Shown here piece after piece: positions 56,931-57,769 of a stretch of DNA of 64,000 nucleotides; within the stretch, counting starts at the first letter, position 1, and the number at the start of each line of letters is the position of its first letter. Source of the stretch: Dehalococcoidia bacterium (GTDB lineage: Bacteria; Chloroflexota; Dehalococcoidia; Lucifugimonadales; UBA2985); NCBI GenBank assembly GCA_965221925.1, contig OZ244924.1, positions 713 through 64,712 on the forward strand, written 5' to 3'. The notes under the pieces were generated by a model. The model did not search any database, was not told the DNA's origin, and worked only from the letters and a program-made list of their open reading frames with translations. A program made the translations under genes and the position numbers.

Positions 56931-57002
56931 ACTGCAACAAGGCAGGCAGGCAATGGCGGCGACCTTCTGACGGACGATGCCGTGGCCGGAGTCGCCGTCG
57001 TT

Positions 57003-57497
57003 GCTTCTGTTGCATTTGCGGGGTATGAACCTGGAGGACGTTCTGTGGCGATGCCACGAAGCCCAAAAGCATATAGACCAGAAAGGAGGAGGATCCATGG
57101 CTAGAGGCGCAAGCAGACCATCTAGGAGCGGGGGGGTGGGCGCGAAACGCCCAGCACCTAAAGGACAGATAAAATCGGGCAAGACCGTGCAGTATGCGGT
57201 GAAAGATGCCAACGGCAACACCAAGTATGTCGGCACAACCAATAACCCGACCAAACGTGCGGCCGAACATCAGCAGACCGGCAAACTGACGGGCAGCGAC
57301 AAACTCGTGGTTCAAACGAGGGCTATCCCAAGGAAGGCGGCCGAAAGCGTGGAGGCAGCCAAGATAGCTGCCCATCGCAAGGCCACCGGGGCCAATCCCC
57401 AGCACAACGCTACCCCGGATGGCAAATACCACAAGGCCTAGAACCCACCCGCCACAGAACGCCCTCCAGGTTCATACCCAGCAAATGCAACAGAACC
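57003..57497. mobile_element. Non-autonomous IS6-type cassette carrying a GIY-YIG gene
   Basis: 48-bp inverted repeats (57003-57050, 57450-57497; 45/48 identical) starting G(G/C)TTCTGTTGCA; 8-bp direct repeat CCGTCGTT on both sides. Confidence 0.85.
57097..57441 (+). CDS. Minimal GIY-YIG nuclease family protein (114 aa)
   Basis: VQY...KYVGTTNN..KR..EH, later E and PQHN; strong RBS AAAGGAGGAGG. Confidence 0.78.
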   Translation: MARGASRPSRSGGVGAKRPAPKGQIKSGKTVQYAVKDANGNTKYVGTTNNPTKRAAEHQQTGKLTGSDKLVVQTRAIPRKAAESVEAAKIAAHRKATGANPQHNATPDGKYHKA

Positions 57498-57589
57498 CCG
57501 TCGTTGCTTTGGCCCATCGGGCGCGCCGGTTAGCGGGGCTTCTCTGTGGGCGCTGGTTATGCCAACATTGGTTGGAGCGCCACTCCCGT

Positions 57590-57724
57590 TCCGCTCACGC
57601 CCTTCGACATGCTCAGAGCCTGCCCCGTACTTGATACGGGGATGAGCGGAGCAACCTTTCCCGTTCGTGGTGAGCTTAGTTCCCTTGCCCGTTCGTGGTG
57701 AGCTTGTCGAACCATATGAGCGGG
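57590..57724. repeat. REP-like cluster
   Basis: CCCTTCGACATGCTCAGAGC, CCCCGTACTTGATACGGGG and two CCCGTTCGTGGTGAGCTT arms. Confidence 0.8.
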
Positions 57725-57769
57725 GAGGCCAACGGCACAGCGCCAACTCGGTACAACGCGTAAGCGCCG

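Follow-up and report, generated by a model that had tools for sequence, protein, structure and literature searches.

A probable IS6-type MIC with a predicted minimal GIY-YIG endonuclease as its only passenger in a Dehalococcoidia genome

The window, that is, the whole stretch of 64,000 nucleotides of Dehalococcoidia DNA that was analysed, contains at 57003-57497 a 495-bp element in which two inverted repeats (IRs) enclose a single open reading frame (ORF), without a transposase gene. We consider it very probable that this element is an MIC (a transposase-less cassette with insertion-sequence ends) of the IS6 type, mobilised in trans and now stranded, and that its one passenger is a minimal GIY-YIG endonuclease. 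What is known of IS6/IS26 elements concerns mainly bare transposase genes, which form cointegrates and thereby spread antibiotic resistance. Here, a pool of cassettes with one gene each, from uncultured Dehalococcoidia, is framed by IS6-type ends; solitary nucleases or restriction-like fusions are the cargo of many, and several of these cassettes sit in genomes without any such transposase. The interest of the finding rests more on this pool than on the single cassette of the window.

Anatomy of the cassette

Every component of the layout given in an earlier note on this DNA (a target-site duplication (TSD), a 48-bp IR, a strong ribosome-binding site, a 114-aa ORF, a second IR and a TSD) was found in its place. 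The left copy of the TSD, CCGTCGTT, occupies 56995-57002 as read from the sequence, and a single uninterrupted copy of it stands in the sister genomes G008 and G007. The left terminal IR follows at 57003-57050 (plus strand), 48 bp long, with the IS6-type tip GCTTCTGTTGCATTTGCGGGGTA and an inner partial copy of the tip, GTTCTGTGGCG, at 57040-57050. The leader of 46 nt (57051-57096, plus strand), likewise read from the sequence, contains the Shine-Dalgarno GGAGGAGG at 57085-57092, a strong ribosome-binding site 4 nt 5' of the ATG at 57097. This ATG opens the gene for the 114-aa minimal GIY-YIG nuclease P0001 (57097-57441, plus strand), which is recognized by a Pfam match and by residues that are invariant in 19 sequences. 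The ORF had been said to end 8 bp before the second IR, and so it does: the TAG stop lies at 57439-57441, eight bases follow, and the right terminal IR, also 48 bp and with a tip that reads GGTTCTGTTGCATTTGCTGGGTA inward, occupies 57450-57497 (minus strand). The right copy of the TSD, CCGTCGTT, read from the sequence at 57498-57505, has empty sites in the sister genomes.

The two IRs match at 45 of 48 positions over their full length without gaps, and a repeat search paired 46 nt of each arm at 96% complementarity. Outside the arms stands an exact direct repeat, 12 nt long (CCGTCGTTGCTT) instead of 8, because the left tip begins with GCTT and not with the GGTT of the family, and GCTT happens to equal the 4 bases after the target. 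The 15-nt tip has two matches in the window, where 0.06 would be expected by chance, and a count of two was not reached in any of 100 shuffles. The first ~24 nt of the left IR are common to the whole cassette family. At 48 bp, the IR is the longest among the paired elements and about twice the 21-35 bp usual in the family.

The cassette is single-copy in its genome (G000; 2.46 Mb, 5 contigs, 99% complete). Its only ORF encodes the GIY-YIG protein, and the element is therefore not an insertion sequence. No sigma-70-like promoter came up within the element in a consensus scan. A 154-aa frame from 56977, with its start outside the element, was rejected as an artefact; all nine relatives that start at the alignment column of P0001 begin with MAR, MAK, MTR or MS.

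Insertion and sister genomes

A 2.9-kb query across the locus recovered flanks 95-97% identical to it in the sister genomes G008 and G007. In each of them the two flanks meet at one CCGTCGTTGCTT, which is the empty site that the earlier note had proposed to look for; the IS6-type 8-bp duplication that it had described is likewise confirmed, with CCGTCGTT on both sides of the cassette and one copy in the empty site. G008 carries a copy of the cassette elsewhere, 95% identical and with its own 8-bp TSD, CATTCAAC, on both sides. The flanks of this copy map to contig C1 of G000 with an 8-bp overlap at 1927262-1927269, the corresponding empty site in G000. The window cassette is a real insertion that transposed as a unit: it is present at two sites, with its own TSD at each, and each site is empty in the other genome. 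The gene of the G008 copy is intact, and one IR is shorter by 36 bp, which were deleted from between its tip GTTCTGTTGC and the inner GTTCTGTGGC; the position of this deletion indicates that each 48-bp IR contains a tip and a partial inner copy of the tip.

Contigs from sequencing runs were also compared. Run X1 holds the filled site exactly and may be the sample behind the assembly. In X4, X8 and X15 there are separate contigs with a G008-like cassette between other flanks; X15 is an RNA library, which by itself is no demonstration that the cassette is transcribed. No contigs joined across the cassette were found in these four runs.

The nuclease passenger

P0001 matches the Pfam GIY-YIG family (PF01541) over residues 33-63 with 24.9 bits (cut-off 22.6), and Y33, Y44, G46, R54, H58, E86, G98, P101 and N104 are invariant in the 19-sequence alignment, which upholds the earlier identification as a GIY-YIG ORF; it is not a transposase fragment. 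The Tyr of GIY, the Tyr of YIG, Arg, His, Glu and Asn are what we take to be the catalytic set of the superfamily, by analogy with I-TevI. Residues 1-28 form a basic, Arg/Gly/Ser-rich low-complexity tail, and residues ~30-110 the catalytic core of ~80 aa. The nearest solved structures by sequence are T4 endonuclease II (E 0.0038), I-TevI, UvrC and SLX1, all at weak E values of 0.004-0.15. The gene copies of G000 and G008 differ by 7 synonymous and 5 non-synonymous changes; the resulting pN/pS of 0.23, calculated from only 12 differences, is consistent with selection for function.

No NCBIfam family and no PADLOC entry matches P0001, and in PHROG only a weak 'endonuclease' match was obtained (E 1.8e-4). 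A word-indexed search gave 16 relatives of 113-167 aa, all unnamed, and an exhaustive profile search gave 446 cluster representatives at E <= 0.001 (93 at E <= 1e-10), mostly of 70-170 aa; a metagenome scan with protein alignment added 3 partial loci only. Judged by sequence, the relatives are a small family of minimal proteins, and P0001 is predicted to be an intact, selected, minimal GIY-YIG endonuclease. A free-standing homing endonuclease of the I-TevI / Seg type was considered and rejected: in I-TevI the catalytic domain is joined to a separate sequence-specific DNA-binding domain, and P0001 has no such separate domain.

In a profile search, relatives of the nuclease were found in 22 of 401 genomes of the class. 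Paired IS6-type ends or flanking IRs were found at none of the 28 relative loci outside G000, beyond chance matches of 11-12 nt, and one 114-aa relative gene (L133) lies between two housekeeping genes. Since the relatives at these other loci have no IRs, the cassette captured an otherwise free-standing gene. The relative in genome G001 has a hairpin repeat on both sides, which occurs in 106 copies in that genome, and keeps one degenerate IS6-type end that lies inside the hairpin repeats. A 49-bp repeat at the same locus was tried as a second kind of IR and rejected, being two copies of this abundant species-specific hairpin repeat.

As to its role, our tentative guess, held at rather less than even confidence, is that P0001 may be a solitary DNA nuclease kept for cutting incoming or competing DNA, in a defence-like or selfish manner. 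Smaller shares of the probability go to an Ssn-like role and to that of a transposition helper, and the remainder to some other role; Ssn proteins are described as site-specific single-stranded DNA nucleases of the single-domain GIY-YIG type (PMC11893778).

The pool of cassettes sharing these ends

A 17-nt tip pattern, scanned with <=2 mismatches over the 29 genomes of the family, had matches in 14 of them, including several inverted pairs 500-1100 bp apart; a reversed-pattern control gave 0 to 2 matches per genome. In a wider genome collection the pattern GGTTCTGTTGCATT-N3-6-GGGTA, after the IR tips GGTTCTGTTGCATT..GGGTAG, detected 75 stretches, 72 of them in records titled Dehalococcoidia, Chloroflexi, Chloroflexota or Anaerolineaceae. 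Ten of the matches lie at the extreme ends of short-read contigs, as expected for repeated DNA. Scripted pairing of the ends produced 57 entries, 5 of which are alternative pairings of one end, leaving 52 distinct elements, between 270 and 2439 bp long and for the most part from Dehalococcoidia genomes. The further IR-bounded copies with different cargo that the earlier note had suggested seeking are therefore plentiful. An 8-bp TSD is perfect in 24 of the 52 elements, has one mismatch in 8 and is lacking in 20, and the elements without a matching TSD include six near-identical copies of 276-290 bp in one genome.

The portion of the ends that is shared is ~24 bp. Described traits of the IS6 family are 8-bp repeats, GG tips and a cTGTt motif (PMC7986276), and the window's right tip, GGTTCTGTTGCA, has both the GG tip and the motif; the left tip has GC. 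Among 64 ends of TSD-bearing elements, G1 and G2 are present in 61 and the CTGTT positions in 62-64, a conservation that is biased upward at end positions 1-14 because the ends were chosen with a 14-nt tip pattern. The internal caaa motif of the IS6 consensus IR (PMC7986276) is absent from these ends, and GCATT(T) stands in its place.

No target consensus was apparent by eye among the 24 perfect TSDs. Hairpin targeting was not detected either: the centre of the TSD falls in a good hairpin loop in 3.1% of 32 rebuilt empty sites vs 5.2% of 289 controls, and the mean folding energy is -30.7 at these empty sites vs -31.6 in control windows. In viral contigs the tip pattern occurs in 10 related AT-rich contigs from one sample, each with a single match. 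These matches were considered as evidence of a carrier and judged to be due to chance, as they lie inside other sequence and all are unpaired, so that they give no sign of a viral carrier.

Cargo of the pool

A Pfam scan took in 48 ORFs from the paired-end elements. Nuclease domains supported by Pfam are present in 12 transposase-less elements: GIY-YIG in 7, HNH in 3 (L103, L102 and L037) and methylase-Mrr in 2 (L095 and L060). The GIY-YIG cargo falls into three sequence groups, namely that of the window and G008, that of L063, and a ~200-aa group (L031, L046, L100 and L111), and an eighth GIY-YIG candidate in L062, below the Pfam cut-off, has the invariant residues. Between the window group and the ~200-aa group the relationship is only distant (hhalign E 5.7e-4, probability 29%), so that they look like separate captures.

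The commonest cargo, with five elements of which G000 has one, is a 207-238-aa family. The motifs H-E, P-D-L and E-V are conserved in it, and it has a weak PD-(D/E)XK-like motif, with VRR_NUC matches that are sub-threshold only. No NCBIfam match was found for two of its members, no PHROG or PADLOC match for one member, and no solved relative. That the family might be the transposase was considered and rejected, for it has no transposase signature and real IS6 transposases were found in other elements. Further cargo includes LRR-like secreted proteins, two membrane proteins, a DnaJ-domain protein, a NikA-like ribbon-helix-helix protein and ORFs without an assigned kind, and roughly twelve elements, 270-544 bp long, lack a convincing ORF. 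The pool is a source of very small uncharacterized nucleases from several superfamilies.

Partner transposases and probable mobilisation in trans

Three elements with these ends contain a transposase of the DDE_Tnp_IS240 family (PF13610; 57 bits vs a cut-off of 27). L077 (1417 bp, perfect TSD) encodes a 297-aa transposase and a 155-aa ORF; L058 (1533 bp) has the same transposase and an HTH_36 protein; and L055 (2439 bp, perfect TSD) has a 267-aa transposase and a 378-aa methylase-Mrr fusion. The best NCBIfam match of L077 and L055 is transpos_IS6 (NF033587), with 112-115 bits over the whole profile, slightly under its equivalog cut-off (115 vs 125 bits), and the next family reaches 51. At both ends of L077, 23 of 24 positions agree with the window's right tip. 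L055 shares its genome with L060 and L095, two transposase-less elements whose passenger is the same and whose ends resemble those of L055, and these three elements together show how such cassettes arise.

The transposases have a restricted distribution. A profile search found no PF13610 transposase in G000, nor does the L077 protein have a match there, and PF13610 was found in none of the eight and none of the seven other genomes of the two genera that hold paired-end cassettes. Over the 29 genomes of the family there are two weak PF13610 matches, both in genera without a tip match, and genome G027, a single 2.79-Mb contig, holds five cassettes without PF13610. Of 401 genomes sampled from the class, 40 contain relatives of the L077 transposase, none with more than 48% identity. 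Among the sampled genomes of the same order only two had matches, one fragmentary and broken by stop codons, the other consisting of one partial match without stops and a fragment with a stop. As G000 has no such transposase, the cassette would be stranded until one arrives.

The earlier note had described a non-autonomous cassette moved in trans and proposed a search for an autonomous IS6 partner. The non-autonomous part stands, since the cassette has no transposase, and partners with the same ends exist in other Dehalococcoidia genomes, though not in this one. The trans step we infer from other genomes only, because no transposase with these ends was found in G000 or in the 15 genomes of the two genera.

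The IS6 family is described as transposing by copy-in cointegrate formation (PMC7986276, PMC6807381). On this model, an IS6-family DDE transposase supplied by another element would bind the two ~24-bp tips, and insertion would take place between a CoA-transferase gene and the repeat cluster, with duplication of 8 bp of target. The donor replicon would be joined to the chromosome through the cassette as a copy-in cointegrate, in which replication doubles the cassette; homologous recombination between the two 495-bp copies would then release the donor and leave one cassette with its TSD. Such a cointegrate route would explain the presence of cassettes in genomes that never kept a transposase. 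The passenger is probably transcribed by read-through from the upstream gene, because the two genes are co-oriented and the consensus scan gave no promoter within the element. If this account is true, IS6-type ends can act as a general shuttle that carries small genes of a selfish or defensive kind; the shuttle would be loaded when the transposase is lost, and donors present only transiently would deliver it.

Neighbouring repeats and alternative explanations

The earlier note reported a REP cluster about 90 bp away, and repeat cores do lie beside the cassette, at about 57585-57727. G000 has 179 clusters of this repeat, and positions no more than 100 bp from a cluster make up 2.8% of the genome. 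The three IS6-type cassettes of G000 are 25 (window), 94 and 29 bp from a cluster, and the other two carry unrelated cargo. The proximity of cassettes to clusters is real and not specific to the nuclease cargo; it may only mark intergenic regions that tolerate insertion. These repeats also bear on a reading, compatible with the cassette, in which P0001 acts like Ssn, cutting single-stranded DNA at a genome-specific hairpin repeat and thereby modulating DNA uptake or recombination. Ssn genes are described as often flanked by hairpin repeats of their own (PMC11893778), and Ssn proteins are small, single-domain GIY-YIG proteins; the hairpin repeat on both sides of the G001 relative and the short distance between the window cassette and a cluster of an abundant repeat fit this pattern. 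However, none of the 28 other relative loci among the 400 other genomes of the class has flanking repeats, the cluster is already beside the empty site in G008 and G007, the two G000 cassettes with unrelated cargo share the proximity, and the site of the G008 copy is >10 kb from any such cluster. An Ssn-like role is judged unlikely.

Two further readings assign the nuclease a part in transposition itself. TnsA is the second-strand nuclease of Tn7, and the nuclease cargos might be interchangeable enzymes of that sort, cutting the 5' ends (the non-transferred strand) at the IRs and converting copy-in into cut-and-paste transposition. The recurrence of GIY-YIG, HNH and Mrr as cargo, together with the fourth family and its weak PD-(D/E)XK-like motif, is in favour, as are the unusually long IRs of the window with a second partial tip copy at each end; the reading would also explain why G000 and G008 have one copy each at different sites with clean empty sites reciprocally. 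We nevertheless hold it to be quite improbable, as other cassettes carry membrane, LRR-like, DnaJ and ribbon-helix-helix genes, the transposase-bearing L058 and L077 carry an HTH protein and a 155-aa ORF and not these nucleases, and the GIY-YIG relatives are mostly free-standing and without IRs. Harder still to credit is that the element is self-contained and moved by the GIY-YIG protein, with the 48-bp IRs as the substrates of this protein, even though the gene takes up nearly the whole element and the IRs exceed those of all other family members in length. The same tips and TSDs bound 51 other elements that have unrelated cargo or none, three of them with an IS6 transposase; IRs are missing at all 28 other relative loci; and the G008 copy lost 36 bp of one IR with the gene intact. 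In view of the first two of these observations, the earlier proposal that the long IRs may be substrates or binding sites for the cargo protein finds no support. A chance origin of the inverted repeat, an error of the assembly and a decayed piece of a transposase are all refuted as explanations: although X1, the only run with the exact filled site, may be the source sample of the assembly, the number of tip matches expected from shuffles is only 0.06, G008 has an independent copy flanked by a TSD of its own, both empty sites exist, and the ORF matches GIY-YIG and no transposase. The reading preferred here is that of an IS6-type MIC mobilised in trans; what counts against it, besides the lack of a transposase in these genomes, is the score of the partner transposases just under the IS6 cut-off, the missing caaa motif, the 20 elements without a matching TSD and the 48-bp length of the IRs.

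Comparison with known systems

The earlier note knew of no described element with this architecture. The kind is already known as the MIC class, transposase-less and IS-ended cassettes with passenger genes, of which MIC231 of Bacillus cereus is described as the prototype (Chen et al., 1999; PMC6542083). MICs and the window cassette have in common IS-type IRs around a passenger, the lack of a transposase and a target duplication, and the mobility in trans of MICs would be shared as well. The window cassette differs from MIC231 in its ends, which are of the IS6 and not the IS231/IS4 type, in its Dehalococcoidia host, in the absence of a cognate transposase from the genome, and in its membership of a pool whose dozens of different cargos include many nucleases. 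In the full-text literature, a search that left most subscription journals and ISfinder outside its range, no description of IS6-type cassettes with passenger genes was found, nor any paper in which Dehalococcoidia and IS6 transposase cassettes come together. The IS6-type pool with its nuclease-rich cargo is thus apparently undescribed.

Within the IS6 family, a 2021 review mentions only two ORF-less MITEs and one passenger-carrying member, ISDsp3 (PMC7986276). ISDsp3, from Dehalococcoides sp. BAV1, is given in a 2019 analysis as 1456 bp with a 319-aa transposase, repeats matching at 28/36, an 8-bp TSD and a position outside all clades (PMC6807381). It resembles the window cassette in its family, its Dehalococcoidia host, the 8-bp TSD, the long terminal repeats and the passenger gene, and is likened, by its description, to L077 and L058 (1417 and 1533 bp) in size class; unlike the window element, it keeps its transposase. 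The two MITEs, MITEBth2 (227 bp) and MITEHarch3 (336 bp), are described in PMC6807381 (lengths in PMC7986276). Like the window cassette they are transposase-less and have both IS6-type ends, whereas they contain no ORF and the window cassette carries a gene that appears intact and selected.

The Ssn family, defined by CDD cd10448, is comparable to P0001 in that a small single-domain GIY-YIG protein is encoded by a gene bracketed by repeats. The bracketing repeats of the window are, however, transposon ends common to unrelated cargo, unlike the hairpins of Ssn, which are its own. A broader analogy may be drawn with integron gene cassettes, which are small, mostly single-gene, promoter-poor mobile units with interchangeable cargo that are moved by an integrase at attC and attI. 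The IS6-type cassette pool is likewise made up of small, mostly single-gene, promoter-poor units whose cargo is interchangeable; in contrast to integron cassettes, these would be moved by a DDE transposase acting on IRs, with 8-bp duplications and at many sites.

IS6-type cassettes in the source genome

Besides the cassette in the window, the source genome harbours two further IS6-type cassettes, both located shortly past the window's end, and all three lie within approximately 70 kb of a 2.38-Mb contig (C1). The nearer is a 713-bp cassette (L033 805-1517, coordinates with L-numbers being counted within each locus; C1:69017-69729) that encodes a 207-aa protein of a frequent cargo family and has no matching target-site duplication. 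The other, of 1030 bp (L036 488-1517; C1:124968-125997), encodes a 245-aa LRR-like repeat protein and is bordered by the duplication CGCACGAC/CGCACGGC. The sister genomes G007 and G008 lack this 1030-bp cassette, yet carry 152-293 bp of other sequence between its flanks.

The repeat cluster at 57585-57727 of the window belongs to a family with 179 clusters in the source genome. All three cassettes of this genome (3/3) are positioned 25-94 bp from the nearest such cluster, although the stretches no more than 100 bp away from these clusters add up to just 2.8% of the genome.

Relatives of the small nuclease

A species-specific hairpin repeat, CCCTTCCCCCGTCTGCGGGGGAAGG, flanks the relative of the nuclease gene in genome G001 on both sides (L005 1273-1321 and 1831-1879). 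It is present in 106 copies in G001, but in just one copy each in the source genome, G007 and G008. In a profile search for relatives of the small nuclease, 16 separate stretches of P0022, a protein of 2096 aa, matched the profile; P0022 may be a repetitive protein composed of a portion of the small-nuclease domain.

Miniature elements and tandem ends

Six near-identical miniature elements of 276-290 bp were detected in one genome (L053, L080, L105, L107, L108 and L110). IS6-type tips are present in these copies and a matching 8-bp duplication is absent; among them, one tip begins with CG, not GG. A tandem pair of tip copies occurs at one end of each of two cassettes, spaced 34 bp apart in L010 (1501-1570) and 42 bp apart in L037 (1459-1530), and resembles the partial inner tip copy inside the window's 48-bp inverted repeats.

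Cargo of IS6-type cassettes

The commonest cargo of the cassettes is a family of 207-238-aa proteins, with members in L006 (798-1436), L007 (1590-2228), L012 (744-1457), L052 (3398-4030) and L033 (865-1485). Invariant in the family are H8-E9, P73-D74-L75 and E89-V90, a weak PD-(D/E)XK-like motif. VRR_NUC matches stayed below the threshold; no NCBIfam match was found for the two members scanned, no PHROG or PADLOC match for the one member searched, and no relative among solved structures.

In genome G027, a small zinc-ribbon protein (CxxC...CxxxC) with a basic tail adjoins one inverted repeat in each of two cassettes (L026, 64-aa ORF; L041, 61-aa ORF), the main cargo of which differs.

A further cargo, of 374-378 aa, joins an N6/N4 methylase to an Mrr-type nuclease domain. 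It recurs within one genome, in a transposase-bearing element (L055 5253-7691) and in two transposase-less cassettes (L060 756-2376; L095 3339-4956). This cargo looks like a single-chain restriction-modification enzyme carried between IS6-type ends.
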